Source: Lytechinus pictus (Eukaryota). From it: a stretch of 64,000 nucleotides of DNA. The notes under the pieces were generated by a model. That model did no database searches. It was not told the DNA's origin and saw nothing but the letters and a program-made list of their open reading frames with translations. This document shows, piece after piece, positions 12,901 to 60,767 of the stretch. Each line of letters begins with the position of its first letter. The stretch's first letter is position 1. Both the position numbers and the translations under genes were made by a program. The DNA lies in NCBI RefSeq assembly GCF_037042905.1, contig NC_087245.1, positions 29,948,001 to 30,012,000 of the forward strand, read 5' to 3'.

Positions 12901-15900
12901 CGAGTTTGCATTGAACACTGGATCACCGCAATCTGAAACTCTCGCTCTACCGCCAGAGCTATTTCTCCTCTATAATGTATTCGTATTCATTCTTGGGTGT
13001 GTTGTAGTCTAGTGGCTCTGAACCGTTGAAACTGAGGGTGATGAGTTTGAATCCCAGCCATGGCATATTCTCTTTTCACAAGAAAATTTTCCGTATTGTG
13101 GCGCACTCCAACCAAGTGAAGTGAATAGGTACCAGGGGGTGTTTCACGAAGATTTAAGTATGACTTAAGTCACACTTAAATCCAACACGTACATGATATG
13201 CAACGCAAACTTATTGATAGATGTGCAGTAGTGTGCGTCCTCATGACACGATCTGACCAATGTGGTCAAGCCTTTCATACCGTACGTAACTCTGTATTTA
13301 AAAGCGACTCTTAGTCATACTTAATTCTTTGTGAAACACCCCCCCCCCGTATGATTGCCTGTCTGAATGCACTGAGTTTTGCTTGATAAAGTGGTAGCTC
13401 AAGCTCAAGGCGGGGGTAATAATAGTTTGCGTTGTATCCTCTGGCAAAAAGATCTTTAAAAATCAAGAAATTATTATCATCATTTATCTTTGTAGCTACA
13501 AGTCCTGGGATGCTGCTGTCCAGTGCCTCTCAGTTCTTGATGTCTTGATGAGCTTTGCTGATTATAGCCAGTCTGCAGATGGCAACATGTGTAGACCCGA
13601 CATCATACTGCCCTCTGAGAGTGACCAGGTATTTCGCCAAGTCGCAATCTTTTGCGTCACTGACTTTGCGCCTTATTAAAAAAATTGCTTCTATTGGCTT
13701 TTACTAATAATAATGATAATGACAATAATAATTATTACAATTAATAATAATAATGATAATGACAATGATAATAGTAATATTTAAAAAATAGTAGTGACAT
13801 TAATAATAATAATAAAAATAATATTAATAATAATAAAAAAAAAAAAATAGTATTACTGCTACTACTACTACTACTACTACTAATCACAATGTCAAACGCT
13901 TAGAATCACCGAGTATTATGCGCTATATAAATGTAATATTATTTTGATCTGAGAAAACCTTAAGTCTCTTGAATATGAATAATATGTTTCATTTGTTCAT
14001 ATCATGTCTATCTTTTTTACAGCCGTACATCGCTATTGTAGAAGGGCGTCATCCTTGCATAGCACATACCTTCGCTGGAGGGGACTACATCCCTAACGAC
14101 ACATTTATAGGCATTAAAAATGTAAGAATACTCTTGCGATAAATTTTTTTTTGAAATCTCTTGTCTTGTTAGACCAATCTAAGATGTTTCTTGCTCGAAT
14201 TAACTAGTAGAAACCCACATGTAAACTTTTTTATTGGAATGTGATGGTTATGTTTATTCAAGGAACACTTTCAATACCTATCATATTTTCTAGCACTCTT
14301 GGACAGTATCATTAATTATTACCTAGACAAGGTGTTTTGGCAGCTAAATAAAGTAGTTGTAATTCGCACGCTATTTTCAATCTGAGACCAAGGTGGTAAA
14401 CATTTTACCACGTTGCCCTCTTCCGGGTTTTTCTCATCGGGATACTGTACAAAAATAGAGAGCAACTTTTGCCATATTCTTGCAAGTGCAATATTCATGA
14501 GTCTGGTTGGAACCAGTTGTGTTATTTAATGCGCAATCTGATTGATGGAAACACGGTAGTGGGCATCCTGTTCGCATAAACTGACCAATGCGGTGATGCG
14601 TTATATACTGTACACAACTGAAATTTAGATAATATAATTCTCAGTCACAAATGTTAGTGAACACCCCTCCCCGGATTTGGAACTTGCCCCAACGTTATTG
14701 AAATAATTATTCTCTTCTCAGGAGAATGAGATGGATGATGGAGAGGGTAACCATGGCAACAGCAGCTGTATCCTGGTGACGGGACCCAACATGGGTGGCA
14801 AGTCAACCCTGATGAGACAGGCGGGGCTGATTGTCGTCATGGCGCAGCTTGGATGCTACGTCCCTGCAGAGGGTTGTAGACTGACACCGGTAGACAGGGT
14901 CTTTACAAGGCTTGGTGCAAGAGATAACATTTTATCAGGTGAGTAGTTGACAGCTTTAAAGGGGAATCCAACCCAAATAAAAACTTGCTTTTATAAGAAA
15001 AAGAAAAATCAGACAAGTTGATAGGTGAAAGTTTGAACAATATTGGACAAACAACAAGAAAGTTATGAATTTTTAAAAGTTGTAAATATTGGTAATCACT
15101 ATACCCATGGAGACTACAAATTGGCCGCATATGGGATGTCATAATGATGTAAGGCAAGGACTACTCTTCCATGTACTCCAATAGATATTATGGTTAAAAT
15201 GTCATTTTTCCCAAAAGTTTTATTTCAAATTATATTTTTCTTTCATGAAGACATAAAACAATATACTACCTGGGTTATATTTAGATTATTGCCCAAGGGG
15301 AATGGGTACTTTGGAGAAAACCACAAATACCTGATAATAAAGTACATGGCCTATGGGAAAGTTGTCCTTGCCCCTTGTCATAATTTACTTGCCCAGTTGC
15401 CAATTTGAAATCTACATAGTATTAGTGATCTCAATTTTAAAGCAGCTATAACTTTCTTCTTGCTTGTCCGATTTCTTTCAAACTTTCACCATTCTGTTTA
15501 ATATATTTTTCTCCTTCCAAACCCATCATTCAATGGCCAAGGCTGGATTCCCCTTTAATAATTGCCCCCCCTCCTGTGTTCTGATCTTCATCATGGCACA
15601 GCTTGGATGCTTTGTCCCTGCAGAGGGTTGTAGATTGACACCGGTAGACAGGGTCTTTACAAGGCTTGGTGCAAGAGATAACATTTTATCAGGTGTGTAG
15701 TTGACAGCTTTAATAATTGCCCCCCCCCCCTCCTCCTCCTCCTGTGGTCTGATCTTCATCATGGCACAGCTTGGATGCTACGTCCCTGCAGAGGGTTGTA
15801 GATTGACACCAGTAAACAGGGTCTTTACAAGGCTTGGTGCAAGATATAAAATTTTATTAGGTGAGTAGTTGACAGCTTTAATAATTGCCCCTCCTTCCTC

Positions 15901-18900
15901 CTCCTGTGTTCTGATCTTCATCATGGCACAGCTTGGATGCTACGTCCCTGCAGAGGGTTGTAGATTGACACCAGTAAACAGGGTCTTTACAAGGCTTGGT
16001 GCAAGATACAAAATTTTATTAGGTGAGTAGTTGACAGCTTTAATAATTACCCCCCCTCCTGTGTTCTGATCTTCATCATGGCACAGCTTGGATGCTATGT
16101 CCCTGCAGAGGGTTGTAGATTGACACCGGTAGACAGGGTCTTTACAAGGCTTGGTGCAAGATATAAAATTTTATTAGGTGAGTAGTTGACAGCTTTAATA
16201 ATTGCCCCCCCCCTTCCTCCTCCTGTGTTCTTATCTTCATCATGGTATAGCTTGGATGCTACGTCCCTGCAGAGGGTTGTAGATTGACACCAGTAAACAG
16301 GGTCTTTACAAGGCTTGGTGCAAGATATAAAATTTTATTAGGTGAGTAGTTGACAGCTTTAATAATTACCCCCCCCCCCTCCTGTGTTCTGATCTTCATC
16401 ATGGCACAGCTTGGATGCTACATCCCTGCAGAGGGTTGTAGATTGACACCAGTAAACAGGGTCTTTACAAGGCTTGCTGCAAGAGATAATATACTATCAG
16501 GTAGGTACAATGTAGTTGGTAACTTTATGCCCCCCACCCCATCCTGGTCTCATTGTCATCATGGCACAGCTCAGTTGCTCCTTTCCCTATTTTAATTAGA
16601 TGGGTAATCATTTGTTCAATTTGTTCAATGATTGTTAGATGAAGACTTTATGTCAGCTTGCCTGGTATAGCAATCTGCAATATTTAACTGTAAGAAAGGA
16701 ACTACTGCACGGACCAGGTGACCGGACCTTGTACATGTAGGTTACATCAATCTACAATTGGGAAAGCTTCTGTTTTCTATTAAATTGTCTGCTTTAAACA
16801 TTCCTATCATTTGACAAACTGCCAAATCCCAACATCATTGACTACCGTAAGTAACGGACTATAAACCGCACCCGTGGATTAACCGTACCCCCAACTTTGG
16901 ACTAAAAAGAAAGAAAGAAAAAAAAAAAAAAAATCCTCACAGTTAAAGATTTCAAAGTATCCAAAGAGATTACCGGTATGCTGTTCTTGATCAATTCATC
17001 TACAAATGTTTGCAAGAAAGAAAGGTCCCGACAATATTGGCCACTTACTCACTCACTCACCTCACAGTCACAGTGTACACACACACAGCACTGCCGTTCT
17101 TGTACATTGCAAACTACGATACTGTACCAGTACATCTTATAAAATAATGATCTGTGTCTTTCCCGCCGTAGGAGGAAGAAACATTCACATTTCTTGCATC
17201 ACAAACTCACAATCACTTTCAGAATTTGTCTAGCATTCGATGTCTTAGCATGAATTTTGGATACGGGATTACAGGAAGGTTCAAGAAACAAAGAAATTGG
17301 CATTTTTTACAGTTGTTTTGACGGCTTCGTGCCGTCTCTCTCGTTGCGTGGTGTACATGGTATCTTATGAAAAGCAAACGGGAAAGAAAAAATAAGCTGC
17401 CGCGAAACGGGACTTTGGAGGGGATGGAGGGTAAAATGAATAGCGCCAGCTTAAGTCGCACTATAACCACAATACAACGTAAGCTAGCTCAGCTAACTCA
17501 AATCTCGTGCTCGCTCAGCTGTGACAAAATATTACCGAGTATGCTTGGCTTCTCTTTGAACTTAGCCAGGGAACTTCGCTGCTTTGAACCGAGAATAAAG
17601 TCGAAATTAGTGTCATGAAGGTGGGTGCGTTTGTTATGGACAATATTTGATAAGATAGTTAATAATCGCTTCTCATTACCCGCGGCTCATACCCCTCTAA
17701 ACGACATTGCCCTGGGCGGCTACGCCCGGCCACTCGATGTGTTGTGAACTGGCAGACGCCTTACACGTTCGGGAAGGGTTACGACGGGCTGGCTCAGACC
17801 CGTCACCGTGGATAAACCGCACCCCCGACTTTTGCTTCTATCCCGCCGAGAAAAAGGTGCGGTTAATAGACCGTTACTTACGGTAAACACTTTTTTACTA
17901 GCAGCAATTACCCGTGACAGCACAGGGGGTAGGAGTCACTTTTCTTTATCAAGGTATGTGTGCGTGTGTTTGTGGGGGGGGGGTGATATTCTTGTATGTT
18001 CAGCTAGACTGCCTATTCACACTGAAAGCCAAGCAGTTTATTGATGAAATATATTACACAACTGATTCATAGCAGACTTCTCTTTCAATATAGATAGGAA
18101 GTTCAATTAAGTTAAGCATCTTGGGTTGAACTGGAGAAAGAACTTCAATAATCATAGCAGAGTGAAATAAAATCGAACTATAAAATGGAAAAATGTATTA
18201 GAACATGGTGTATTCAGTAAGCAGTCAAGAGGCAATTATTGTGGTATAGAAATGTTATCATTACATGTATTTGGTTAGAAATAAATATGTAAGTACATTG
18301 CACATGTACCTTACAATGTACATTAGACTGCGGTTGTTTGTACTTTGTAAATTAAAAGTTGCTCAATCATGTATAAGTACAGCGGGATGTCGAAAAGAAG
18401 TGAGAGTAAGGGAAGGGGGGGGGGTGATAAATCAGTGGTCGGAAAAATGAGTCAGACAGACAGTGAGGAAAATGAGAGACAGACAATGGGAAAAAAATGA
18501 GAGAGGGAGGGAAAAATGCAAGAGACCCACACAGGGAAAATGAATGAGAGAGAGACAGACAGAAAGTGGGAAAAATGAGAGAGACAGTGGGGAAAATGAA
18601 TGTGAGAGACAGTGGGAAAATCAGAGAGATGAAGAGAGAGATAGAGAAATTATAAAGAATACAAAAGAGCGAGAAAGAGAGAAAAGGTTTTAAATGTTAA
18701 TTGTAATAAAAGATAAGATTTGTATGGCTTCCATGGGCTTTTAAAATGTTTTTTTAAGTAGCCTAGGCCTAGGGCTAGGCTATAGATTTCTAGATCTAGA
18801 GTCTTTTAAGTAACGTTAAAGGAGAATGAAACTCTTGGAGCAAGTTAGCTTTTGTGAAAGCAGAAAAATCAAAGAATAAGATCAACAAAAGTTTGAGTAA

Positions 18901-21900
18901 AATAGGACTAGCAATAGAAGAGTTATGAGCATTTGAATGTCGAGATCACTAATGCTATGGAGATCCTCCAATTGGCAATGCGACCAAGATCTATGATGTC
19001 ACAGATGAACAACTCTCCCCTTTTGGACACTGAAAATATACCCCAAAACATCTCTTTTTGCTCATTCTAATCATATATGACCAACAATTCATCAATGATA
19101 TAATGTTGTGAAACCTCTGTACTTGTCCTCTCATAAAGAGAACACCTCACCTTGTAATAGACTCTATAAAAGTGAGAATACAAGTGAAATAAGTACTAAA
19201 GTAATGAGGGAGTTGTACGTGTGTGACATCACAGATCTTGGTCGCATTGCCAACAGGAGGATCTAGATGGCATTAGTGATCTCAATTTTCAAATGCTCAT
19301 AACTTTCTTATTATTTATTCAATCTTCCTCAAACTTTCAACAATATGTTTCTTTGATTTTTCTCTTTGATATGGATTCAGTTGGTTTCAAGGGTTTCATT
19401 CTCCTTTAAGTTCTCTCGGCCTAGAGTCTACTGTAGGCTTGATCTATAATCTAAGTTAGATCTAACTCTAGCTGTTAGAACTATTCTGAATTTGAACCCT
19501 CTCCCATACAAAATTGAAAAAAAAAGTTTTGTATGGTACTCTGTACTACATCAGCCAAACAAATTTATTATACGTTAGAATTACAGAATAGGGCTTCACT
19601 GCAGAATCATTCACAATAAAATAAATAAATCGGTTTGTCAGAAAGTCGTACTCATGGTCAATGGTAACCACTGAGGACCCTTGGGGGGGATACTCGACCC
19701 AAAAATTGGTAGGTGTGTGCCGCGGGCGAGACAAAAACCGGGGGCCTTGGAGCGGACTTATTGTAAAAAGGAGGGTCCTCGGAACAGGCTTCGGAACTAC
19801 AAATGCTTGTGAAATGGGGGTCCTTGGAACGGGTCGCTTGCGTGTGCATCCCTATGGAACGGGCATACGTGTATGCAGCTAGCCCAGCGGCACGGGCGCC
19901 GGGTGTGCTCGCGCAGAGGCGATGGTCGGACAGCGCTCATCGGCTGCTTTTCACCAAAATTGCAGCTCATTGTGGCGGATCAATGCGACTGGAACGGCGT
20001 AACGAAAAATATGCGAAGCTTTGGAGTGGATTTCTTTCTTCTTTTCTCTCGATAAGAAGAAAATGCTATGCTTCGGAGCGGCTTTCTTACTTCTTTTTCT
20101 TAATAAGATGAAAATGCTATGCCCTGGAACGGAAATTTGAGTGTAAAAATGGGGGTCCCTTCCGTGGCACATACCCAATATGCATTATATACTGAGTGCC
20201 CCCCCCCCCCGGCCGATAGGGTATATTGTTTAGGTTTGTTTCAGCAGCACATGCATGCAGTCAGTGCATACCGTACCATACCCGGTCGGCATGATTGCAT
20301 GCATGCATTGTATTTCGCTGACCCGAGAGAGGTAAAAGGGACTGGGAACTTCGAAGCTATATTCAGGGCTGCGAAAAGGAATGCAAAAGAGTTAGGAATT
20401 GTAAAAAAACTTTAAATAATGCGACCAAAATAACACAAACAAAATACCACAAACAACCCCTCCATGACAATCTGCGAACAATATAACTATGTTTAGAAAA
20501 AATTCCAGCTCGAGTGGAAAACCACGGAGAAAAGCGCCGTCAAACAAACTTGAAGGACACATGATTAGCTAAATTATAGTAAGGATTCTCTAAATGGGAT
20601 AACAAGCAAGTTTTGAAATAGCATAAAAAAATCATGTGCATCTCAATGACCTTCATCTGCTTATGCTCAAATTGTAATTACGAAATGGTTTATTGACAAC
20701 ATGTTGATAGTTGTATGATTATTTTGATCTTACAAAGAGTAATGATAATAAATGATGAATGCAATTTTTCTTAAAATATTAGAATGCATAAAAATAAAAA
20801 CATTTCTTTGCACCTCATTGAAGTCCCTCTTTACTGTGCCATTCTTATGATGATGACACTAAATAAAACTTTAATTACATAGGTTATGTAGATTCATATC
20901 AATGATTGGTCTTTATATTCCCTTAGGTAATGTCTATCACTGCTTTTTGTGTAATCAGTTGGTTTGCTTGATGTCCACACTAGTGTGTACGTGTAGTTTT
21001 TCTATTATGACATATACAGATCAGAGCTGGAGCAAGCATTGTGTGTAAGTTTATCACAAAGCTTAATGCGGACCCTGATGGACAATTTTCATAGACTATA
21101 TAATATAACATATTTGCCTGGTTTGTCTGTGATAAATATTCCAACTCCCCTACGAAGCTAGAATTTATTCGCTGGCAAAATTTTTCCCTTAATGCTGTGT
21201 GCTTGGGGCAAAATATAATCCTTTTTGAAAAAATGTAGTATACCTCCATTGGGAAAATTAACTGTTATATTAAACCACTAGGTGGGCAATATCTGTAATA
21301 TTGAACATTTTGTTTTCTGTCAGGTGAGAGCACCTTCTTTGTGGAGCTCAGTGAGACGGCCAGCATCCTCAAACACGCCTCCAAGCATTCCCTCGTTCTC
21401 ATGGACGAGTTAGGGCGGGGCACGGCAACGTACGACGGCACAGCCATAGCAACGGCCGTTGTGAAGGAACTTTCCGAGGTGGTTGGATGTAGGACACTCT
21501 TCTCAACCCACTATCATTCCCTAGTGGAAGACTTCTCTCATGACCCGAACATCAGGCTAGGTCACATGGTACGTCATGTGATTAGTTAATTTGTGCATTT
21601 CATAATACATGCTTTACCAACAGTCATTATCATGAGAGGCTTGTCGGGCAACCACCTTTTCCTAAGACATACAAGATAGCACTGACCACGAGTAAGAAAT
21701 GAAAATTTTAGAAATTTGAACTGAATGGTGAATCCCAAGCGTAGGGAAGATAATAAGCTTTATCAGTAGAACAGCCAGCGAGTTCCCTAGAAAATTGTTG
21801 TGTTAAATGAGATTGTACTCACTTTGAAAGAGAAACACTGATACATGCATGGTTTGACTATAATAAGGGTGCAATTTGAGCAAATGTATTAAGAAAAACA

Positions 21901-24900
21901 CAAGTTAACCCTTGGTACAATTTTGATTTTTCTGCCTCCACCCTCGGGAGGGGGTGGGGGGGGGGGGCTAGATGTATTATGTAGTTATTCTAATGACTTT
22001 TTGATGGATTTACTTTAAAATTTGCTCTCTTATTCATATTGGAAGAAACTCCTGGGTTGCAAGGTCAAAGATTGAAGAGGTTGTTGTTGAAATAAAATGG
22101 TTTGTTGGTGTAATTTGGTTAGTGAAGTTTAATAAGAACTAGGCCAAGAGCATTAGGTTTAACATGGAAATTTTTGGTAACAAGCTGATTTTTTCAGGAT
22201 AGGTCTAGAAATATGTCTAGAATAACATACTAAAAGTCCTCATATATCCTTGAGGGTTTTCCGTAATCCAAGATGGCGTCCAAAATGGCCGCCATTCACA
22301 GAAAATGGTCATTACTCACTCATTATTCACCCTAGACATCAAATTTTGGTGCATATTTCATGGTTTATAAAAAAGGGGGTAAAAAGAGCTCTTGATACAG
22401 GTTAGAGTAACGTAAGCAGACCAGTATTCCTAAAAATCCAAGATGGCATCTGAAATGGCGCCAAAGCCTAAAAATCCACAATTCATCTATTATGTTAGTA
22501 TCTTTAATTTAATTTCTATTCAGTGGTGTTCAGGGTCAAGTAGTACATCGGGACAAGTTACAAGGGCAGTCGGTGGTCAAGTATGTCCAAAATTCGAAGA
22601 TTCCTTCCAAAAATGGGGTCTAAAATGGCTGCTATTACTTACAAATGGACAGTACATTCAATATCTGCCTGGGATATATGATTGTGGTATCTAAACCATG
22701 GTTTAAAGGGTCAGATAATACATAAGGACAGCTTAAAAGGACAGTCAGTGGTCCAGTATGTCCGAAAATCCAAGATGGCTTCCAAAGATGGTGTCTTAAA
22801 TTGACTGCTGTTACTGAAAAATTGACATAAAATAAAAAACAGCTTGTAAAAATGGAGTCTAAAAGTGACATAGTTAATCTATTATCTGCCTGGGAGATGA
22901 TATTTTGGGGTCTAAAACATTGGTTAAAGGGTAAAATCATGCATAAGGACAAGTTAAAATGACATTGCGTGGTTCAGTATGTCATAAAATCTAACATGGC
23001 TTCCAAAAATGGAGTCTAAAATTGATGTTTTTACTTTATGGACATAGTTCATTATTTTGATATCTGCCTGGGATATATGATTTTGGTGTCTTAACCATTC
23101 TCTAAAGCGTCAAATAATATATTAAGAAAGTTCAAAGGACAGTCAGTGGTCCTGTATGTCCAAAAATCCAAGATGGCTTCCAAAAATGGAGTCTAAATTG
23201 ACTGCTGTTACTTAAAAGACATACTTCATTAAAATCCAACTGAGAGATATTATTGTGGTTTTTTTTTGTGGTTTGAAGGGTCAAATAATACATTAGGAAA
23301 AGTTAAAGGACAGTCAGTGGTCCAGTTCCAAGAATTGAAGACAGCTTCTAAGAATGGAGTCTAAAATGGCTGTTGCTACATACAAATGGATATAGTTCAT
23401 TTAATATCTGCCTGGCAGATATGATTTTGGTGCATATACCATGGTTTATAGAGTCAAATGATATATTGGCACAAGTCACAAGGACAGCCAGTCGGTGGTC
23501 CAGTATGTCCAAAAATTCAAGATGGCTTCCAAAAATAAAATCTAAATTGACTGCCGTGACTGAAAAAATTGCATAATTATTAAAAATCCACCTTTGAGAT
23601 ATGATTTTGGTGTCTATACTATGTTTTCAAGAGTAAAATAATATTTTGGGACTGTTAACAATTATGTTGTTGTCCATTTTGCCCAAAAAATCCCAGATGG
23701 CTTCTAAAATGGTGTCTTAATGACTCCCATCATTTAAAAATAGTGTTAATTCATACAATATCCATCTGTGAGGAATGATTGCAGTGTCAACGCTTAAATG
23801 CATTGGGGAAAACTGATCCTATGGCTATGGTTTTAGGAGTAGGTAACAGCAGGCATTTTGCAATAATATTACCCCCTTGGATTTTTGCACATAATGAAAA
23901 GCTGAACATCCTTGTTACTTGTCCTATATTTGCCAATTTATTTCTCACAGGTGGATATGAAGTATGACCGTTTTTAAGTGATAGGAGTTTCACACCATTT
24001 TGGAAGCCCTGTTGGATTTTCATGCAAAATGGACAATTGCATATCATTGTGAGGAGTCCCGAAGTATTATTTGACCCCTGAAACTATAGACACCAAAATA
24101 TTATCTCTCACGCGGATTTAAATTTAACTAATGTCCCTTTGTAAGTAATAGCAGCCAATTTAGACTCCATTTTTGGCAGCCATCTTGGATTTTTGGACAT
24201 ACTGGACCACTGAGTGTCCTTTATTTTCTCCTAATGTATTATTTGACCCTTTAAACCATGGTTTGGACAACTAACTATTATCTCCCAGGCAGATATTAAA
24301 TTAACTACATTGTATGTCAATTTGGTTGTAACAACAGCCATTTTAGACTCCATTTTTACAAGCCGTCTTCAATTTTTTGACATACTGGACAACTGGCTGT
24401 CCTTTTTACTTGTCCTAATGTATTATTTGACCCTTTAAACCACACTATAGACACCATATTCATATCTCTCTGGTGGATTTTTAATGAAGTATGCCAATGT
24501 TTCAATAACAGTAGTCAATTTATACTCCATTTTTGGAAGCCATCTTGGATTTCTGGACATACTGGACCACTGCATGTCCTTGTAACCTGTCCTAATATAT
24601 TATTTGACCCTTTAAACAATGTTTTAGACACCAAAATATTATCTCCCAGGCAGATATTAAATGAAATATGTCAATTTTAGACTCCATTTTTGCAAGCCGT
24701 CTTCGATTTTTATGTCAATTTTCAGTAACAGCAATCAATTTAGACTCCATTTTTGGAAGTCATCTGGGATTTGTGGACATACTGAGTGTCCTTGTAAGTT
24801 GTCCAAATGTACTACTTAACCTTTAAAACCATTGAATGTAAACAAAATTAAAGATACTAACATAAGTAATAGATGAATTGTGGATTTTTAGGCTTTGGCG

Positions 24901-27900
24901 GCCATTTTAGACGCCATCTTGGATTTTTAAGGTATAGAATCTACCGGTCTGCTTATGTTCACTCTTAACCTGTATCAATAGCTCTTTTCATCCCTTTAAA
25001 CCATGAAATATGCACCAAAATTTGATGTCTAGGGTGGATAAGGAGTGAGTTATGGCCATTTTTGTCTCACCTGCATAGCAGAGTGAGACTATAGGCGCCG
25101 CTTTTCCGACGGCGACGGCGGCGGCGGCGTCAACACCAAATCTTAACCTGAGGTTAAGTTTTTGAAATGACAGCATAACTAAAAAAGTATATGGACCTAG
25201 TTCATGAAACTTGGCCATAAGGTTAATCAAGTATTACTGAACATCCTGCCTGAGTTTCATATCACATGACCAAGGTCAAAGGTCATTTAGGGTCAATGAA
25301 CTTAGACCATGTTGGGGGAATCAACATCAAAATCTTAACCTAAGGTTAAGTTTTTGAAATGTCATCATAACTTAGAAAATATATGGACCTAGTTCATGAA
25401 ACTTATACATAAGGTTAATCAAGTATCACTGAACATCCTGCATGAGTTTCACATCACATGACCAAGGTCAAAGGTCATTTAGGGTCAATGAACTTTGGCC
25501 AAATTGGGGGTATCTGTTGAATTACCATCATAACTTTGAAAGTTTATGGATCTGATTCATGAAACTTGGACATAATAGTAATCAAGTATTACTGAACATC
25601 CTGTGCAAGTTTCAGGTCACATGATCAAGGTCAAAGGTCATTTAGGGTCAATGAACTTTGGCCAAATTGGGGTATTTGTTGAATTACAGCCATAAATTTG
25701 AAAATGTGTTGGTCTAGTTCATAAAACTTGGACATAATAGTAATCAAGTATCACTGAACATCCTGTGCGAGTTTCAGATCACATGATCAAGGTCAAAGGT
25801 CATGTAAGGTCAAAGAACTTTGGCCACGTTGGGGGTATTTGTTGAATTGCCGTCATATCTCTATAAGTGTATTGGTCTAGTTCATAAAACGTGGAAATAA
25901 GAGTAACCAAGTATCACTGAACATCTTGTGCGAGTTATAGTAGTTTTCAAAATCAGCACTGCTGCTATATTGAATCGCGTGATGCAGGTGAGACGGCCAG
26001 AGGCATTCCACTTGTCTGTGAATGGCGGCCATTTTGGATGCCACCTTGGATTACGGAAAACCCTCAAGGAGAATATCTGACAACTTTTAGTATGTTATTC
26101 TAGACATATTTCTGGACCTATCCTAAAAAAATCAGCTTGTTACCTGAAATTTCCTTTCTTAAGCCTATTTTAGCCTAATGCTCTTGGCCTAAACTGAGAA
26201 AGATGGGTGTCGAAAATGAAGAAAGGTTTATTATCTAAAGTTGTTATTCTGTTTTGTCACTGTCTCATACTGAAATGTTTTTATTTGTCATGATAGGCAT
26301 GTATGGTTGAGAATGAGAATGAAGAAGACCCTTCACAGGAAACCATCACGTTCCTCTACAAGTTTGTGGGAGGGGCTTGTCCAAAAAGCTACGGTTTCAA
26401 TGCCGCCCGATTGGCTGACATACCAGATGAGGTAGGAGCTTGAAATATATATTGAATATATCTTTGTACTAGAACTCAAACAAAATCGCAGCCTATCATT
26501 ATTTTTTTTCAGAGAGAGAGAGAGAGAGAGAAAAGACAATTCTACTAGTTAGAAGATCTTTAATGTTATTTTTTATTATTTTTTTTACAGTTCCTGATGT
26601 GTTATAGATATTGGCCCGAATTCACAAAGGTGGACTAAAGTTATACCCGGGGTATAAAACGCGTCATTTGACGTCATTTTAATCCATGGACTAAAGTTAG
26701 CACCTAGGGGCTAACTTTTGCGATTCACAAAGGTCGACTAAAGTTATACCGGGGTATAAAACGCGTCATTTGACGTCACGACTTAGTCAGCTCTTTGGGG
26801 TGGACTAAATCGGTGGGTTAAAGTTAGTCCACTGTTTTAACCAATCAGAGAGCAGCATTTCGATTGCGGAAAAGTTTGCTGCAAGAAATTTTTTTTTGGA
26901 CAGAGACGAGATTCGGTGTGATCGGCTTATCTAAAGCTTCATATTTCACGACTTCGACCGAGATTGTAAGTAAATTACATAATTTTTGGAGCTTAAATCA
27001 TGACGGAGCCTTCAGTTCCATCTGTAACTATTATTGATAGCTTTAACTTTCCAAAAGGTATACTCGAAAACTTGAAATGGTATCTGAATCATTGTTATCG
27101 TCGCGTCTCTAAGCTGCTCAGTCCCAGCCATGTACTTTTGTGTGCGTTCATATCTATGAGCATTGCAGTGCGAGACGCAATTAGCGTACACTACACAGGC
27201 CAGGTAGTCGTGATTGAAAGGTCGATACTATTTGCTAGTTATGTCAGGCAGTGATTTTCGATTTCGTGTGATTTTCATGGAATTTTTGTTGTCTACGATA
27301 CCCCTGCCACTCCTCCTGGCCTGCCACTCCTCCTGGCCCTGCCAACACAGCTACTGTGCATCTAATTTTGTCTGAGACTGAAGCAAGGCCAAGGCAAGTC
27401 CAGGCATGCCAGGAGAGCAGCAATACAAATAAGTTTTTTTTAAACACTACAATACAGAGCCGGTCTAACTTAGACATTCTACTCTGGGCTGGCTTTTTCT
27501 TGGCTTGGATAGATGGTCAAGCTTTGAAGCTTACCTGGTAGCCATGTTAGAGTTAGTCCTACAACATCGTTGGAGTAAAAAAAAATATTTTAATAAGGGT
27601 CAACTCTAAATTAAGGCTAAGCCCTGATTAAATTATTTTTTGAAAAAATATTTAATAAAGATTGGGTTCCACTCACCGCTGTTTACTCCAACAGCTATAA
27701 ATGAGCTGATTTTACTTATACTAAAACTAAGTTTTACTGACCTTCGGCATTGCATTTGCGATCACTTATAGATTTACGGTGTCGTCAAAACATTAAAAAA
27801 TAATGGAAATCCTAGGCCTAATTGATTATTTGAGTAGATCTAACTGAGGTCTAACTTTGAAAATTCTCTCTTTTGGGGGTTATTATAAACTCTACCCCAC

Positions 27901-30900
27901 CCTCTTTGTTTCAAGTATTTTTTTTTCACAAGGAGTCCCAATGTTATATTCACATGATACCACAGACAAGTGCATTTGATCTTCAGTCCTCTACATTTGT
28001 AGTAGACCGATAAATAGGTTTATTTCTGTCAGGGATATGCTCCCCTGAGATTTCATGTGGCTCCGCAGCATCCCGTCCCACCAAAAAAAAATCAGAAATT
28101 GTTGAACGACTCCTCTGAAACAGCGGATTTTATCAATCTACATTTGTAGCTGCTTTATTATTTTTTTCTTTGATATACCTTGACATTGCAGTATGATTGA
28201 TGAATAAATATTTTTTTCATTATTTTTTTTCTTCCATATCAGCAACAGACCATACATACTCGGCAGATTGTGCTCAATCAAGACAAAGCAAACATGGCTC
28301 ACAATTTTGAACTGCTGTGCCGTCTTGCAAGAGAGTGAGGTATGCCTTATCAATTCATATTTAAAAAAAATTAAATGTCATTAAAATGGCCTTTTTTAAT
28401 AAAATATTATTTCTGGGATTTGAATTCATCATGTAATTGTAATTTGTAAATGTATCATGTGACATGTATGTTACTTTTTCATTCTTGTCATAGTAATTGA
28501 CAAAAAAGAAGAGGGGGGGGGGACCTTGCTTGTGTGTTATTAACATATATATTTGTCTACTGGTCACTAGGCTTGTTGATCTCCAATTAATCCTGACATT
28601 TTGTTGAATATTTATTTAAAAGAGAGAAAGAAAGCATTGTCAGTTTGATGAATGCCGGGGGGGGGGGGGTAGAAAAAAAGGTTTAATGAGACTTTGATGA
28701 AGATTCATGAAAATATGTTATTCGAAAGTCACTCGCAAGCAATAACCTCTATTTGTGTAAACAAAGTTCCATAAAATTAGTGCCTTGCCTTCATTATTAA
28801 AGCCAATTGAAAGTGATTCAGTAAATCAGTTTTCATAGAAGCATCTCTATGACGTGCGTGGTTTGATCAATGATGATGATCAGCAGCAATTGGCAGGTTT
28901 TTTTTCTTCACTTTTACAAGTAGGTAAATAGAAAAGCTACTCATGTCAATTAGAATTTTTATCCTATCTTTTTTAAAGGATTTCTGTATAATCTTTCACA
29001 TTTTGTTCCTCATTTTAAACACTTTTGAATTAAATGAAATTCAAAGAGTAAATTGCCCATTCATGGTGACTCTTAAACACAATCTTTTAACTTCCATGCA
29101 GATTCAGCAACACATAGAAAGACCACAGCATGGATTAAGAGACAGGAAGAATCCATTTGAATACTATGAGGATGAACCTCTCAGAGTGGGGTACCAACAG
29201 AGAGAACCACACATTGCCTGTCATGTTACAGGTTTTGACAGGACTTTGTTTTATGTCATTGGTGAGTTTTCATGTGCGAACTATAAAGCAGAGGGTAATT
29301 GGGGGGGGGGGTCAAATTATGTTCTATGAAAGTGATTTTCCAGGCCAAAAATGATGAGATTTTGATAAAGAACGATTCGACTAGCAAAAACCATCAATAT
29401 TGGATGGAGAATCATGAATTGATTCAGTTTTAAAGTTTTACATAACTTGGGGGAAACAGTTCTGTGTATCTCATATGCAATATTCATATCCCCACTTGTT
29501 CTCTAGTGATCTGAAATCATAATCATTATTTTTTTTCCTCCAGGAATGTAAAAATGGGGTTGACTGCTGATTATATATTTAAGATAGTTATTGCGAGTTC
29601 AGAATAATGTAAGGATCAAGGATTGGAAGTATCTAGTCATGAAAATTAAGTTTTATGTGTTGCTTAGCATGCAGATTTTCCATTGAGTAATTGTCGCCAG
29701 AGCAAATATCATGGAACCCTTGTACATTCATGTGTGGAAAATGTGTGGATGTGACATCATCAGGCTATTTCTTGCATATTCATGAAAACATGCACATGTT
29801 TCACAGAAATAATTAATGCAAAACCTAATATTCATTATTAATCATCCAAATTGTATGATTTTTGTTTCTGCTTTCAGCCAGGAGTACTAGTAATCCCTTA
29901 CAGGGGAGGGGGAGTGTTGGGGGTATTTCACAGAAAGGTTTTTGTAGGAATGAAACATGTAACCCTTTGGGTTGGAAATAGGTGGGGATTTTATTTTTCT
30001 CTCATTTTTTACAATGTAGCAACATTTTTTAATACAAATATGTCATATTCAAGTGGGAAATTATCATGAAGGATGATTTATAACCACCCAAAAAGAAATA
30101 TTGGTATGTCATTTCAGCTTAACAGAGATATTCTCCATTTTGCATGGATTGTTATTGCAGTAGAGTTTTTTTTTAATGAATCGAAGAAAAATCTCTTTAA
30201 GCAGTTCCAGTGCATCATAAAAATCAGGTCATAACAGAAGCACAATGTTTGCAAACGTAAATGGTAAAGTATCAATTGGCTTTCATATCAATAAACCAAT
30301 TACTAGTACATAACATCACTTATCATTCGATAATTAAAGGTACCTTTTAGAAGATGCAAGCAGACGAAGCAACTATATCACAGTCATCCGTGTGCAGAAT
30401 CATCAAAGATTTTTCTGAGGCAATAGCAAGGAGTAACAGTCAATGCAGATTCCGATGACGAGAAATTCAAACCACCCAGCGACAATTTGATGATTGCTAC
30501 AGGTTTCCAAGAGTCATAGGTGCTATCGATTGGGGCCAATCCAGGCCATGTCTGCATCAGGAGTCCTGATGGGGAACAAGCCCTGTACTTAGCAGGAAGA
30601 ACAGGTCTTCTGTAAATGTATAGGTTTGTATACTCACTCAGTTTTTAATGTGATATTCTCTGTATTCAACACCTACTAGAGGTATGTGATAATGAAGAAA
30701 AATATATTGGCCCCTACTACATACTGTCTTTTATCAAGTTTCAATCTTGTTGTTAGTCGTGATTGAAAGGTCGATACTATTTGCTAGTTATGTCAGGCAG
30801 TGATTTTCGATTTCGTGTGATTTTCATGGAATTTTTGTTGTCTACGATACCCCTGCCACTCCTCCTGGCCTGCCACTCCTCCTGGCCCTGCCAACACAGC

Positions 30901-33900
30901 TACTGTGCATCTAATTTTGTCTGAGACTGAAGCAAGGCCAAGGCAAGTCCAGGCATGCCAGGAGAGCAGCAATACAAATAAGTTTTTTTTAAACACTACA
31001 ATACAGAGCCGGTCTAACTTAGACATTCTACTCTGGGCTGGCTTTTTCTTGGCTTGGATAGATGGTCAAGCTTTGAAGCTTACCTGGTAGCCATGTTAGA
31101 GTTAGTCCTACAACATCGTTGGAGTAAAAAAAAATATTTTAATAAGGGTCAACTCTAAATTAAGGCTAAGCCCTGATTAAATTATTTTTTGAAAAAATAT
31201 TTAATAAAGATTGGGTTCCACTCACCGCTGTTTACTCCAACAGCTATAAATGAGCTGATTTTACTTATACTAAAACTAAGTTTTACTGACCTTCGGCATT
31301 GCATTTGCGATCACTTATAGATTTACGGTGTCGTCAAAACATTAAAAAATAATGGAAATCCTAGGCCTAATTGATTATTTGAGTAGATCTAACTGAGGTC
31401 TAACTTTGAAAATTCTCTCTTTTGGGGGTTATTATAAACTCTACCCCACCCTCTTTGTTTCAAGTATTTTTTTTTCACAAGGAGTCCCAATGTTATATTC
31501 ACATGATACCACAGACAAGTGCATTTGATCTTCAGTCCTCTACATTTGTAGTAGACCGATAAATAGGTTTATTTCTGTCAGGGATATGCTCCCCTGAGAT
31601 TTCATGTGGCTCCGCAGCATCCCGTCCCACCAAAAAAAAATCAGAAACTGTTGAACGACTCCTCTGAAACAGCGGATTTTATCAATCTACATTTGTAGCT
31701 GCTTTATTATTTTTTTCTTTGATATACCTTGACATTGCAGTATGATTGATGAATAAATATTTTTTTCATTATTTTTTTTCTTCCATATCAGCAACAGACC
31801 ATACATACTCGGCAGATTGTGCTCAATCAAGACAAAGCAAACATGGCTCACAATTTTGAACTGCTGTGCCGTCTTGCAAGAGAGTGAGGTATGCCTTATC
31901 AATTCATATTTAAAAAAAATTAAATGTCATTAAAATGGCCTTTTTTAATAAAATATTATTTCTGGGATTTGAATTCATCATGTAATTGTAATTTGTAAAT
32001 GTATCATGTGACATGTATGTTACTTTTTCATTCTTGTCATAGTAATTGACAAAAAAGAAGAGGGGGGGGGGACCTTGCTTGTGTGTTATTAACATATATA
32101 TTTGTCTACTGGTCACTAGGCTTGTTGATCTCCAATTAATCCTGACATTTTGTTGAATATTTATTTAAAAGAGAGAAAGAAAGCATTGTCAGTTTGATGA
32201 ATGCCGGGGGGGGGGGGGTAGAAAAAAAGGTTTAATGAGACTTTGATGAAGATTCATGAAAATATGTTATTCGAAAGTCACTCGCAAGCAATAACCTCTA
32301 TTTGTGTAAACAAAGTTCCATAAAATTAGTGCCTTGCCTTCATTATTAAAGCCAATTGAAAGTGATTCAGTAAATCAGTTTTCATAGAAGCATCTCTATG
32401 ACGTGCGTGGTTTGATCAATGATGATGATCAGCAGCAATTGGCAGGTTTTTTTTCTTCACTTTTACAAGTAGGTAAATAGAAAAGCTACTCATGTCAATT
32501 AGAATTTTTATCCTATCTTTTTTAAAGGATTTCTGTATAATCTTTCACATTTTGTTCCTCATTTTAAACACTTTTGAATTAAATGAAATTCAAAGAGTAA
32601 ATTGCCCATTCATGGTGACTCTTAAACACAATCTTTTAACTTCCATGCAGATTCAGCAACACATAGAAAGACCACAGCATGGATTAAGAGACAGGAAGAA
32701 TCCATTTGAATACTATGAGGATGAACCTCTCAGAGTGGGGTACCAACAGAGAGAACCACACATTGCCTGTCATGTTACAGGTTTTGACAGGACTTTGTTT
32801 TATGTCATTGGTGAGTTTTCATGTGCGAACTATAAAGCAGAGGGTAATTGGGGGGGGGGGTCAAATTATGTTCTATGAAAGTGATTTTCCAGGCCAAAAA
32901 TGATGAGATTTTGATAAAGAACGATTCGACTAGCAAAAACCATCAATATTGGATGGAGAATCATGAATTGATTCAGTTTTAAAGTTTTACATAACTTGGG
33001 GGAAACAGTTCTGTGTATCTCATATGCAATATTCATATCCCCACTTGTTCTCTAGTGATCTGAAATCATAATCATTATTTTTTTTCCTCCAGGAATGTAA
33101 AAATGGGGTTGACTGCTGATTATATATTTAAGATAGTTATTGCGAGTTCAGAATAATGTAAGGATCAAGGATTGGAAGTATCTAGTCATGAAAATTAAGT
33201 TTTATGTTTTGCTTAGCATGCAGATTTTCCATTGAGTAATTGTCGCCAGAGCAAATATCATGGAACCCTTGTACATTCATGTGTGGAAAATGTGTGGATG
33301 TGACATCATCAGGCTATTTCTTGCATATTCATGAAAACATGCACATGTTTCACAGAAATAATTAATGCAAAACCTAATATTCATTATTAATCATCCAAAT
33401 TGTATGATTTTTGTTTCTGCTTTCAGCCAGGAGTACTAGTAATCCCTTACAGGGGAGGGGGAGTGTTGGGGGTATTTCACAGAAAGGTTTTTGTAGGAAT
33501 GAAACATGTAACCCTTTGGGTTGGAAATAGGTGGGGATTTTATTTTTCTCTCATTTTTTACAATGTAGCAACATTTTTTAATACAAATATGTCATATTCA
33601 AGTGGGAAATTATCATGAAGGATGATTTATAACCACCCAAAAAGAAATATTGGTATGTCATTTCAGCTTAACAGAGATATTCTCCATTTTGCATGGATTG
33701 TTATTGCAGTAGAGTTTTTTTTTAATGAATCGAAGAAAAATCTCTTTAAGCAGTTCCAGTGCATCATAAAAATCAGGTCATAACAGAAGCACAATGTTTG
33801 CAAACGTAAATGGTAAAGTATCAATTGGCTTTCATATCAATAAACCAATTACTAGTACATAACATCACTTATCATTCGATAATTAAAGGTACCTTTTAGA

Positions 33901-36900
33901 AGATGCAAGCAGACGAAGCAACTATATCACAGTCATCCGTGTGCAGAATCATCAAAGATTTTTCTGAGGCAATAGCAAGGAGTAACAGTCAATGCAGATT
34001 CCGATGACGAGAAATTCAAACCACCCAGCGACAATTTGATGATTGCTACAGGTTTCCAAGAGTCATAGGTGCTATCGATTGGGGCCAATCCAGGCCATGT
34101 CTGCATCAGGAGTCCTGATGGGGAACAAGCCCTGTACTTAGCAGGAAGAACAGGTCTTCTGTAAATGTATAGGTTTGTATACTCACTCAGTTTTTGTCTC
34201 ACCTGCATAGCAGAGTGAGACTATAGGCGCCGCTTTTCCGACGGCGACGGCGGCGGCGACGGCGGCGGCGACGGCGGCGGCGGCGGCGACGGCGGCGTCA
34301 ACACCAAATCTTAACCTGAGGTTAAGTTTTTGAAATGACAGCATAACTTAGAAAGTATATGGACCTAGTTCATGAAACTTGGCCATAAGGTTAATCAAGT
34401 ATTACTGAACATCCTGCCTGAGTTTCATGTCACATGACCAAGGTCAAAGGTCATTTAGGGTCAATGAACTTAGACCATGTTGGGGGAATCAACATCAAAA
34501 TCTTAACCTAAGGTTAAGTTTTTGAAATGTCATCATAACTTAGAAAATATATGGACCTAGTTCATGAAACTTATACATAAGGTTAATCAAGTATCACTGA
34601 ATATCCTGCATGAGTTTCACATCACATGACCAAGGTCAAAGGTCATTTAGGGTCAATGAACTTTGGCCGAATTGGGGGTATCTGTTGAATTACCATCATA
34701 ACTTTGAATGTTTATGGATCTGATTCATGAAACTTGGACATAATAGTAATCAAGTATTACTGAACATCCTGTGCAAGTTTCAGGTCACATGATCAAGGTC
34801 AAAGGTCATTTAGGGTCAATGAACTTTGGCCAAATTGAGGTATTTGTTGAATTACAGCCATAAATTTGAAAGTGTGTTGGTCTAGTTCATAAAACTTGGA
34901 CATAATAGTAATCAAGTATCACTGAACATCCTGTGCGAGTTTCAGGTCACATGATCAAGTTCAAAGGTCATGTAAGGTCAAAGAACTTTGGCCACGTTGG
35001 GGGTATTTGTTGAATTGCCATCATATCTCTATAAGTGTATTGGTCTAGTTCATAAAACGTGGAAATAAGAGTAACCAAGTATCACTGAACATCTTGTGCG
35101 AGTTATAGTAGTTTTCAAAATCAGCACTGCTGCTATATTGAATCGCGTGATGCAGGTGAGACGGCCAGAGGCATTCCACTTGTTAATGTGATATTCTCTG
35201 TATTCAACACCTACTAGAGGTATGTGATAATGAAGAAAAATATATTGGCCCCTACTACATACTGTCTTTTATCAAGTTTCAATCTTGTTGTTGGTCAAAT
35301 TTTCTTGTAATTTTATACTCTTAATATGTGAAATAAGACAATTTTAAAGATTTCACTGAAGAAAAAAATATAGATAATCTGCTAACTTTCCTATTGCAGG
35401 AGAAATGAAAAATAGAAGAAAAAAAATGCATTTTGCTTATTCAGGTAAAGGAGGTATTAATTGCTTGATCAATGAAGATATATTTGCAGAAAGAATACCG
35501 AAGAGCAAATTTTCTAATATTCATTTTGTTTTTATCCTTATTGCAGGTATCCGTTGCTCCCCTCTTTGATGAATTCCTGCCTGCATTCTGTTGTCAATAG
35601 AAAAGGACGGTGTGCTACGGGTATAAGCATTCCATTGGATTATCTGTGCATGAAAGTGGACACTTGTGATAAAAAATGGTAGCTTGGTTGTAGTGGCGTA
35701 CCTAGGATTTTCCACAGGGAGGGCAAAACCGTTCGGCCGAAAAATTTTACAAGTTAAAAAAAAAAGGTCTTCAATCACAAATAAAGGATTTCGTACCAGA
35801 AAAAAAATTGACAAGCAAAAAAAAAAGGTGTTCAAGCTCGTCAGGGGGGCAGGTATACGTCCTTTGCATGGGTTGTGGCTCGTCAGGGGGGGGGGGCAGA
35901 GTGCCCCCCCCCCCCGTAGGTACGCTAGTGCTTGGTTGATAGGATGTATTCATGCATTCCAATTTATCATTAGTGATCAAATGACCATCTTGCTTTTTAA
36001 AAACCTAAGTTCACAACATTTTTCTTGTTTGATAAAAGGTTTGGGACGTGAATTCCAGGATATAAATGACACATATGATGGGCTAATGTATAAGCAGGGA
36101 CATGAGAGTTATAAGCAACATTTTTTTCATGCTTAATTAAGTTTGGCATGAGATGGACTTGGTCTTTCTTATGATTCAAGTCTATTTTATACCAATTTTG
36201 TTTTAATCAACAATCAATGTTTTAAGTCTCATGATTTCAATTTCAAAACCTCTTTGTTAATTAAATATTCATTTTTCCTTAGCATTTGCATCTTCTTAAT
36301 TTATCAAATTTAAATTATAAGACATCATTATTGCTGAATATCCTTTTTTTCACCTATTTTCATAGGCCCTAAGATACATTTCTGTAGTAAGCACTATAAA
36401 TACATTGCAAGCTATTATCATTTGTTTGATATTACTATTTTATAGAATCATCTTTTAATTTCTTTCAGAAAGATATTTGACAAATTACTTGTGATATCCA
36501 TGCTTTAGCTGTAGAGTTTAAAATCTTCATTAAACTTTATTTAATCCGTTGTTTATCTATTTTCATTCAGAGTTTCTGAAAACGTAAACATATCATTTAT
36601 ATCATTATGTAAAGAATTTCAATCTACCTTAAAAAGTAATGCACTAAATAAACTGCTCTGTCTACTACACATGTACATATAAGTTTTGATTTTAAAGGTC
36701 AAGTCCTCCCCAGAAAAAAAAATCGATTTGAATTAATAGAAAAAAAAATCAACCGAGCATAATGCTGAGAATTTCATCAAAATCCGCGTCGGTTGTAAAA
36801 TAGGAACGTTATGAAATTTTCAAGTTTGGCTTATTTTTCACAACACAGTTATATGCACAGATCAGTGACATGCAAATGAGACAGTCAATGATGTCCACAT

Positions 36901-53000: not shown

Positions 53001-53700
53001 CCCAGATACTAGGTCTAAATCTAATCACGCGCACGCATGTTTATTCAGAACGCAGTTTTTTTTTTTTTGGGAGGGGGGGTACTTCGGGCTTAATGTATTT
53101 GTATCAAACACATTTTATCATAATAATTTTTTGTTATCAGATTTTGATAAAATTTCTTCAAGTTATTTAATTTCAAAGTTTAGCAATATTTTGTGAAAAT
53201 GGTTATATGCATGTCATGAATATTTAATAGGTGGGTTGATGATGTCACATCCACGCTATCCTTTTCCTTATGTTATTACATGGGAGCAAAATTGGTTCAT
53301 TATTTCATACCATTGTGAATGATATGTCTCCCTTATTATGAAATAAGTTGCAGCATAAAATATATAATGGACTAAATCAGTTTTCAATTCAACTGTTTTG
53401 TTCTTGAAGGGAAAATACTGAATAAATCTAATTTTATAAAATAAAATGCAAAAGAACAAGTGGTGATATGACATCATCAGTTTGCTCATTGAATATTAAT
53501 GAAGACATGCCTGAAACTATTTCACCGGAATAATGCTAATCTTTAGAATGCAATTACTTTGATATTCCTTGTCTGATTTTAATCAAATCTTTATTCTTTT
53601 ATTCTTCTGATTTTTCTTTATCTATTCAAACCATATTACATTCAGTATGGAGTACCCCTTTAAACGTGCCTGATTATTAAGTTTCAGATCAGAATATCAA

Positions 53701-54633
53701 CAAGTGGAATGCCTCTGCCGGTCTCACCTGCATCACGCGATTCAATATAGCAGCAGTGCTGACTTTGAAAACTACTATAACTCGCACAAGATGTTCAGTG
53801 ATACTTGGTTACTCTATTTCCACGTTTTATGAACTAGACCAATACACTAATACAGAAATATGATGGTAATTCAACAAATACCCCCAACGTGGCCAAAGTT
53901 CATTGACCTTACATGACCTTTGACTTTGATCATGTGACCTGAAACTCGCACAGGATGTTCAGTGATACTTGATAACTCTTATGTCCAAGTTACGAATCAG
54001 ATCTATAAACTTTCAAAGTTATGGTAATTCAACAGATACCCCCATTATGGCCAAAGTTCTTTGACCTTGGTCATGTGACCTAAAATGCGCACAGGATGTT
54101 CAGTGATACTTGTTTACTCTTAAGTCCAAGTTTTATGAACTAGACCAATACACTTATACAGAGATATGATGGTAATTCAACAAATACCCCCAATTCGGCC
54201 AAAGTTCATTGACCCTAAATGACCTTTGACCTTGGTCATGTGACGTGAAACTCATGCAGGATGTTCAGTGATACTTGATTAATCTTATGTCCAAGTTTCA
54301 TGAACTAGGTTCATATATTTTCTAAGTTATGATGACATTTCAAAAACTTAACCTTAGGTTTAGATTTTGATGTTTATTCCCCCAACATGGTCTAAGTTCA
54401 TTGACCCTAAATGACCTTTGACCTTGGTCATGTGACATGAAACTCAAGCAGGATGTTCAGTAATACTTGATTAATCTTATGGCCAAGTTTCATGAACTAG
54501 GTCCATATGCTTTCTAAGTTATGCTGTTATTTCAAAAACTTAACCTTAGGTTAAGATTTGGTGTTGACGCCGCCGTCGCCGCCGGCACCAGAAAAGCGGT
54601 GCCTATAGTCTCACTTTGCTATGCAGGTGAGAC
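53701..54633 (-). mobile_element. HINE/Helentron-like element, copy 3 (more diverged, minus strand)
   Basis: caagtggaatgcctctg..gtctcacctgca ... gctatgcaggtgagac is the reverse complement of copy 1 ends. Confidence 0.88.
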
Positions 54634-54961
54634 AAAAATGTTCTGCTCATGCTTCGCGCTCACATTATTAGTGTAGGAAGATATCCAATTACCCATCATT
54701 TTCTTGATTTACAAAACATGAATGGAATGTCCCGTTTTTAGGCCTGAAATCTCATTTTTATTTCCGCTCGCGCTTTTCGCTCGCATCAATCGTATAGTTA
54801 TATACCTATCCTCTTCATGATTAGAAAAGTGCTTAAAATGTCTTGTTGTTTGGTCTAAAATCTCAATTTTGTTTCTGCTAGTGCTTCGCGCTCGCATCAA
54901 TTGTATAGTTATATACCTATCCTGTTCATGATTAGAAAAGTGCTTAAGGTGTCTCGTTTTT

Positions 54962-55912: not shown

Positions 55913-56363
55913 TTAGGTCTTAAATCTCATTTTTATTTCCGCTAGCGCTTCGCGCTTGCATCAATTGTATAGTTACATACCTATCCTGTTCATGATTACA
56001 AAAAGTGCTTAGAATGTCTAGTATTTAGGTCGGAATGTCAAATTTTTCTGCTCGCGCTTGGCGCTCGCATTATTTGATTGTTGATATATTGATTGTCTTC
56101 ATTGATAACTGCAAACAGTCCTTATAACACGTCCCTTTCGATCATGCCAGAGCGTATATAAAAATTATCTGCTCGCGCTGATCGTGCTCTCAGTTATTTC
56201 TTACATCCACATCATGTTCAGGACCACAAACTTAGCTCAAAATGTTCAATTTTCAAAACAAAAAACATGAAATCCCCCCCAAATAGCTCGTGTTTCGCGC
56301 TCGAATTATTTTATTATATTTCTAAGTTCTCCTATAAGAATAAAGCTGGCCAAAGTGACTGTC

Positions 56364-60694: not shown

Positions 60695-60767
60695 CAGGAT
60701 CCTGAAAATAAAGAGATTCGAAGAGGGATAAAGACAATGGAAAACGACAGGGCTTGATATTTTTCAA

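Follow-up and report, generated by a model that had tools for sequence, protein, structure and literature searches.

The 64,000-nucleotide (nt) stretch of Lytechinus pictus DNA analysed here (NC_087245.1, positions 29,948,001 to 30,012,000 of the forward strand; below, the window) carries an MSH6 gene, one intron of which contains six tandem copies of the end of the preceding, Walker A exon together with its donor site. This array is most probably a neutral exon-boundary minisatellite of the kind called 'mirage', i.e. a decaying duplication scar in the MSH6 intron without a selected role. An earlier note on this DNA, which had proposed poison exons or a gene-conversion pool, offered neutrality as a fallback only; it is now the best reading in view of the loss of CpGs and conserved residues from the copies and of a copy number of 1 in a relative and 6 here. 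One old duplication was most likely amplified from one copy to six by unequal exchange. The array and the exons on both sides of it are made up as follows.

14722-14938, plus strand: the genuine MSH6 exon with Walker A, 217 nt, entered in phase 0 and left in phase 1, placed by structure and Pfam matches and a splicing model
14827-14938, plus strand: unit 0, exonic portion (final 112 nt of the Walker A exon)
14939-14959, plus strand: true donor gtgagt with the initial 21 nt of the spacer of unit 0, which end in the left TTAA
14960-15554, no strand assigned: non-autonomous DNA transposon like a miniature inverted-repeat transposable element (MITE), Kolobok-type ends, 595 nt; TTAA at 14956-14959 and 15555-15558
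15559-15580, plus strand: remainder of the unit-0 spacer, C-rich tract ahead of copy 1
15581-15692, plus strand: copy 1, 7/112 differences from the exon, donor gtgtgt; candidate acceptors giving 15602-15692 (91 nt) and 15624-15692 (69 nt)
15749-15860, plus strand: copy 2, 10/112 from the exon, donor gtgagt
15911-16022, plus strand: copy 3, 11/112 from the exon and 1/112 from copy 2, donor gtgagt
16066-16177, plus strand: copy 4, 9/112 from the exon, a mosaic with a copy-1-like 5' part and a copy-2-like tail, donor gtgagt
16230-16341, plus strand: copy 5, 13/112 from the exon, an MSH6-frame stop upstream of both acceptors, donor gtgagt
16389-16500, plus strand: copy 6, terminal, 12/112 from the exon, diverged tail with 3 synonymous changes and 1 replacement, donor gtaggt
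16501-16545, plus strand: diverged spacer behind copy 6, with 10 mismatches in 38 aligned bases and 3 gaps against the unit-0 spacer
16546-16575, plus strand: relic of exon bases 14824-14853, 24/30 identical
21324-21568, plus strand: next MSH6 exon (Walker B), the usual splice partner of 14938, placed by homologue alignment, Pfam and the gene model

Each repeat unit comprises the final 112 nt of the exon with its donor, followed by some 45 nt of intron. Tandem Repeats Finder (TRF) reports a period-162 array of 5.7 copies with 92% matches at 15570-16489 and also a period of 485 present 2.0 times. In the assembly the six full copies span 15581-16500; the units are 155-168 nt long and are joined by spacers of 43-56 nt which vary in a C/CCT tract. 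The TRF result, the copy alignments and the relic thus bear out the earlier description of six copies and one partial copy of exon end, donor and intron, and the six donors read as described there. The relic stands out from chance matches (among 234 control windows of 200 nt the maximum is 21/30, and 0/234 reach 24) and is likely the seed or the remnant of the first duplication. The tail of copy 6 and the spacer that follows it are far more diverged than the rest of the array. The first unit straddles the exon-intron boundary and the repeats run head to tail, as in mirages, unit 0 being contiguous in organism B (a close relative, see below) and, if the TTAA-flanked element is left out, in the window as well. 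With lengths of 155-168 nt and GT donors in 6/6 copies, the units were judged to fit the unit-length range (10-160 bp) and the reiterated splice signals of exon-boundary minisatellites.

The exon at the head of the array was confirmed as the Walker A region of MSH6, and the next exon does start at 21324, both as given before. The peptide of 14722-14938 has MSH6 as its top PDB match (E 1.3e-29) and MutS_V as its Pfam match; its 72 residues are 100% identical to the Msh6-like protein of Lytechinus variegatus (P0001) and 94% identical to the Strongylocentrotus purpuratus counterpart. The MSH6 frame in the window is intact: the gene model of 20 exons, running from 787 to 48709, yields 919 codons with 0 internal stops and agrees with P0001 (residue 438 to the end) at 899 of 918 positions. 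The array-bearing intron (14939-21323) is 6385 nt long, and reading through the true donor at 14938 leads to a stop after two codons. In all 88 homologues, out of 93 examined, in which both motifs were found, Walker A and Walker B lie 75 residues apart, and none has a duplicated strand motif. The intact frame and this constant spacing speak indirectly for normal splicing at the authentic donor. Of the other 19 of the 20 exons in the window, none was found to have its edge repeated nearby.

The array does not begin immediately downstream of the exon, as had been thought, since unit 0 is split by an element that measures 603 nt (14956-15558) with both its TTAA copies. Its terminal inverted repeats agree at 17/18 positions, the flanking TTAA included. 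Read depth over it reaches 1e5-1e6, compared with 41-77 on unique DNA, and loose read ends fall exactly at its borders (14955/6 and 15558), which identifies it as a high-copy non-autonomous transposon. In the available part of PMC9587614, a TTAA target duplication and RR..YY termini are given as the Kolobok signature; 14960-15554 has the TTAA duplication, 5'-RR and YY-3' termini, the inverted repeats and the high copy number. Owing to this MITE the first pseudo-donor lies 754 nt past the true donor; without it the distance would be 155-161 nt. Another TTAA-bounded element is present at 18816-19409 (594 nt, 22-nt terminal inverted repeats); it is about 75% like the unit-0 element over the subterminal parts, and a related element lies near 60766-61357. 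Just 3' of the array, at 16843-17885, a pair of 30-nt inverted repeats (93%) about 1 kb apart probably marks one more non-autonomous transposon.

The state of the locus in a close relative (organism B) bears on the order of events. Reads of four of the 24 listed runs (X1, X8, X13 and X24) were mapped on 13900-15715, which comprises the exon, the MITE and copy 1; X8 and X13 are DNA runs of organism B, two samples from two studies. In both, the exon lies complete, differing at 5 letters, on one contig (689 nt in X8, 750 nt in X13) that extends 444 nt (X8) or 508 nt (X13) past it. Run X13 contains the empty-site joint 14956>15565 with 15 letters in between, at a depth of 77.2 that equals the depth of the exon contig, and hence the element is missing at this site in organism B. 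Over copy 1 there is a single piece of equal depth; it ends near 15694 (in both runs 26 nt into the final bin), the point where the donor of copy 6 diverges from that of copy 1. It has the copy-6-type letter at 15614, a CpG site at which a parallel change is possible. Both the exon (14754-14936) and copy 1 (15608-15668) are covered at the depth of one contig, so that organism B has no further copy of at least 85% likeness. Organism B thus has the exon and one copy-6-like copy, without the element. The earlier note had looked to related species for polymorphism of the array, and copy number differs, one in organism B vs six in the window assembly, although this is the only relative compared. 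Run X1 (organism A) has the window letters at the listed exon sites where organism B differs, except for one low-depth contig at 14881, and organism A is thus probably the species of the window itself.

The window and organism B differ by about 7% in nearby, mostly intronic pieces (18/259, 14/196 and 15/207). The spacer of copy 6 is 26% diverged from that of unit 0, and copies 1-5 carry the spacer of the exon. Because the divergence of the copy-6 spacer far exceeds that between the window and organism B, the first duplication predates their split. Copy 6 would then be the oldest copy and the counterpart of the single copy in organism B. Amplification and insertion of the element are most simply placed after the split; the alternative, loss of copies together with precise loss of the element in organism B, is less parsimonious.

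The array itself retains traces of its growth. Copies 1-5 pair a copy-type 5' junction with an exon-type spacer behind, as unequal exchange of the old copy with the exon would produce. The period of 485 and the pairings of copy 1 with copy 4 (4 differences) and of copy 2 with copy 5 (3 differences) suggest that a triplet of units was duplicated. At sites 14893 and 14923 all four combinations of letters are present among the units, and therefore the units have exchanged sequence. The near identity of copies 2 and 3 (1/112), this four-gamete mosaic and the diverged tail and spacer of copy 6 are together the pattern of concerted evolution inside an array that spares the boundary unit.

The copies decay as neutral sequence would. 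In every copy 3-4 of the 4 CpGs of the duplicated part are lost. Synonymous changes make up 3 of the 10 distinct changes in copies 1-5, with a fraction of 0.244 expected (P 0.46), and 6 of 15 over all copies (P 0.14). The changes D>N, D>Y, G>A and V>I fall on residues that are invariant in 93/93 homologues, and the copy of organism B alters the codon of an invariant proline. Judged from these substitutions, the copies are not maintained as protein-coding sequence. The conservation above neutral intron that is expected of a poison exon was not seen either (copy number 1 vs 6, CpG decay and replacements, in the comparison with one relative).

The following course of events would account for the array. 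An old local duplication may have placed one copy of the 3' half of the exon, with the relic, about 160 nt past the true donor; the one-copy, element-free state is the one observed in both runs of organism B. Misalignment of the exon with the copy by one unit, followed by unequal exchange, would have produced hybrid units with a copy-type junction and an exon-type tail and spacer, and more exchanges, among them the apparent three-unit duplication, would have brought the number to six. The TTAA-targeting MITE, present in the window and absent from organism B, would have entered unit 0 after that. To judge from known cases, the spliceosome would stay with the most upstream donor and join 14938 to 21324, and rare cryptic inclusion would be noise, a 91-nt insertion being cleared by nonsense-mediated decay (NMD) and a 69-nt one giving a little aberrant protein.

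Several observations weigh against the array being a silent scar. Splice sites were scored with a matrix built from the gene's own 19 introns, the donor of the array exon included. The donors of the copies score 8.9-11.3, compared with 4.0-10.8 for the true donors (leave-one-out). The acceptor of the 91-nt form scores 5.6-6.0, within the low end of the true acceptors (0.1-10.5, all but three at least 5.7), and only 2 decoy exons of equal score occur in 42,905 nt of other MSH6 introns. Run X1 contains low-depth contigs with array letters (5.3, 5.5 and 2.1, vs 42.4 on exons) at a locus where most unique intron bins are at 0. The changes of the copy-6 tail (3/4) and of the relic (4/5), at 16477-16575, are synonymous in 7/9 cases, a codon-like pattern that is unexplained; the numbers are small and two of the relic changes fall on CpGs. 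Finally, in the human CBS intron-13 and 6-16 intron-2 repeats two downstream pseudo-donors are used, according to the available part of PMC1557585.

One rival reading is that the copies are leaky cryptic exons under no selection, included in a few percent of transcripts either as the 91-nt form (stop, NMD) or as the 69-nt form (23 added residues), and that copy number sets a small incidental loss of MSH6 mRNA. This is the strongest of the rivals, and we consider it unlikely. The donors are strong, the acceptors middling (the 91-nt acceptor lies at the 94th-95th percentile of 2510 decoy AGs), and the exon-derived body possibly carries enhancers; the X1 contigs and the human pseudo-donors fit as well. 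With a laxer donor threshold, however, 94 weaker decoy exons appear in the same introns, so that decoys alone mean little, and for amphioxus reverse transcription PCR (RT-PCR) suggested no interference with splicing, as far as the available text of PMC3087553 goes. The X1 contigs could be six intron copies collapsed in pre-mRNA, an allele with older letters, or inclusion. No inclusion joint is found among the joints listed, but the table was swamped by the MITE and this absence carries no weight. In run X24 (raw RNA, about 6% read) the exons have a depth of 1-4. This run also has 11 reads at 15607-15616, but with four other letters; a different locus, perhaps a paralogue of the MutS family, is their probable source, and they were left out of account as inclusion.

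It is distinctly improbable that the array is a reservoir for turnover of the exon end, in which the terminal copy would once have served as the exon end, or have come from a diverged functional allele, exon and copies would have swapped sequence, and the array could replace the 3' half of the exon. The synonymous changes of the copy-6 tail and relic point in this direction, as does the identity of copy 1 to the exon over the last 57 exon bases. In addition, the body of copy 6 is less diverged from the exon (5/78) than its spacer is from unit 0 (10/38; Fisher P 0.006), which suggests, from the alignment, an earlier homogenisation of this body by the exon. The difference between body and tail of copy 6 (5/78 vs 4/24) is, however, not significant (P 0.21), nor is the synonymous fraction over all copies. 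A Fisher test without the post-split sites (1/78 vs 4/24, P 0.01) was post hoc and is not relied on. Position 14881, which is not in a CpG, is C in the exon of the window and T at the equivalent site of all six copies and in the exon of organism B; the exon therefore mutated after it had templated the copies, and no later copy-to-exon conversion took place at this site. Site 14844 was dropped as proof of a derived exon: 3 of the 4 exon differences between the window and organism B lie in CpGs, and 14881 is the only informative site. The exon has none of the derived amino-acid changes of the array, most alleles of which would damage invariant residues, so that exchange would be a hazard rather than a function. 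Of the gene-conversion pool proposed in the earlier note, sequence exchange among the units remains, and recent conversion of the exon falls away at the one informative site.

Still less probable is a regulated array of poison exons, in which controlled inclusion tunes the dosage of mismatch repair and copy number is under selection. A poison cassette exon introduces a stop when it is included. The 91-nt pseudo-exon 15602-15692 pointed out before exists in the sequence and has its own stop ten codons in (15631 in copy 1, with an equivalent in 6/6 copies) ahead of later junctions, which would make it a target of NMD, and the GT donor and both AGs are kept in every copy. Inclusion had been expected to shift the frame. 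The 91-nt form does truncate, by way of its own stop, but a second AG inherited from the exon defines a 69-nt candidate cassette (e.g. 15624-15692), overlooked then, that is in frame and stop-free in 6/6 copies and would lengthen the stretch from Walker A to Walker B by 23 residues; it has no premature stop. Its acceptor scores 3.1-5.6 and in copy 1 ties with that of the 91-nt form (5.6 vs 5.6), and copies 1 and 4 offer a 45-nt in-frame option as well. Retention of the splice sites is expected from recent amplification alone (copies 1-5 differ at 1-10/112 sites), the decay looks neutral, organism B has one copy vs six, and of the 20 exon edges of MSH6 only this one has such repeats. Since recombination between diverged repeats is suppressed by mismatch repair, the idea has a bolder form, to which we give hardly any credence: controlled inclusion of the 91-nt stop cassette or of the 69-nt cassette in the ATPase domain, the array length setting the MSH6 dosage and a longer array loosening the control of its own expansion.

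An assembly artefact inflating the copy number can practically be dismissed: the copy count rests on the window assembly and a separate 3.5-kb duplication in the window (99.94% identity) is possibly an artefact, but all 15 copy pairs differ (at 1-10 of 112 sites) in shared and mosaic patterns, as the earlier note had argued from its substitutions, and the exon-spacer-copy junction is present independently in two DNA runs of organism B.

The window contains further repeats. The last MSH6 intron contains, on the minus strand at 39429-47746, an apparently intact long terminal repeat (LTR) retrotransposon, a very recent insertion with 496-nt LTRs that are 100% identical; its 1371-codon frame encodes reverse transcriptase, RNase H and integrase in Ty3/gypsy order and is preceded by a 345-codon frame without a Pfam hit. 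The tandem duplication of about 3.5 kb mentioned above lies in the same intron (27205-34195, 2 differences in 3442 bases) and is either very recent or an assembly artefact. Four copies of an element of about 950 nt, 89-98% alike and in both orientations, are found at 25059-26015, 34263-35187, 53699-54640 and 54957-55915 and contain internal tandem units of 192 and 163 nt. The intron that follows the Walker B exon contains an element (22265-24920) whose 177-nt tandem units form long inverted arms.

No report of this array locus was found in the open-access literature among the matches listed. Judged by titles and the beginnings of abstracts, none of the papers matched for a poison exon of MSH6 deals with this subject, and none of the matches listed for Lytechinus with MSH6, mismatch repair or splicing names Lytechinus. 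On the most likely reading the locus is a tidy, dated case of the birth of an exon-boundary minisatellite: a one-copy precursor, then hybrid units and the duplication of a triplet, and afterwards the insertion of a transposon by which the events can be ordered. Whether six strong donors stay silent downstream, each behind half an exon, could be learned here from a natural case. If regulated inclusion were true, the dosage of mismatch repair would be tied to a variable repeat; nothing found points that way.

The origin of a satellite from a coding exon had been called unusual, which does not hold, since exon-boundary minisatellites are a described class (PMC3087553, PMC1557585); PMC10078293 and PMC2812944, as far as available, give general context on repeats and splicing. 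Tandem exon duplications (PMC9013439, in its available part) likewise bring exon-derived sequence with splice sites into a neighbouring intron. Unlike these and unlike poison cassettes, the unit here is half an exon without an acceptor of its own, and it lacks conservation. Human CBS 844ins68 is a partial exon-boundary duplication too, spliced out harmlessly, from which the real exon was proposed to be templated by gene conversion, according to the accessible portion of PMC2630376; there, one duplicate of 68 bp lies on the acceptor side and splicing uses the distal site, whereas here six copies lie on the donor side and the one informative site indicates no recent copy-to-exon conversion. The human minisatellites covered in the available part of PMC1557585 are closer. 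In F7 intron 7, with a 37-bp variable number tandem repeat, five to nine identical donors are present and only the most upstream is used, and the authentic donor alone is used at the boundary minisatellites of LAMIN B2 (100 bp) and PDGF (81 bp). As here, the first unit of the F7-type repeats spans the exon-intron border and the donor is reiterated downstream. An F7 unit holds 4 exon bases, in contrast to 112 with internal AGs, so that every MSH6 unit is a possible cassette exon and more than a pseudo-donor, the first lying 754 nt away.

The closest parallel is provided by the amphioxus mirages, tandem duplications of exon-intron boundaries in Adh3, BflGb6 and BflGb9, as far as they are described in the available part of PMC3087553. 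BflGb6 has units of 150-160 bp (155-168 nt here), six and three of them in two haplotypes, and BflGb9 a 157-bp duplicate of the 3' boundary of an exon. In both systems many units keep splice signals, and the inner units are homogenised by concerted evolution from which boundary units are exempt; copy number is unstable in amphioxus, and for the MSH6 array it is 1 in organism B vs 6 in the window. They differ in that amphioxus is a cephalochordate and Lytechinus a sea urchin, and that the MSH6 array has a MITE-split unit 0 and a one-copy precursor in a relative. Splicing there was followed by RT-PCR, which suggested that it is undisturbed; here the array is known from DNA. On this basis the MSH6 array has the structural features of the exon-boundary minisatellite class, and its splicing behaviour is predicted by likeness to these cases.

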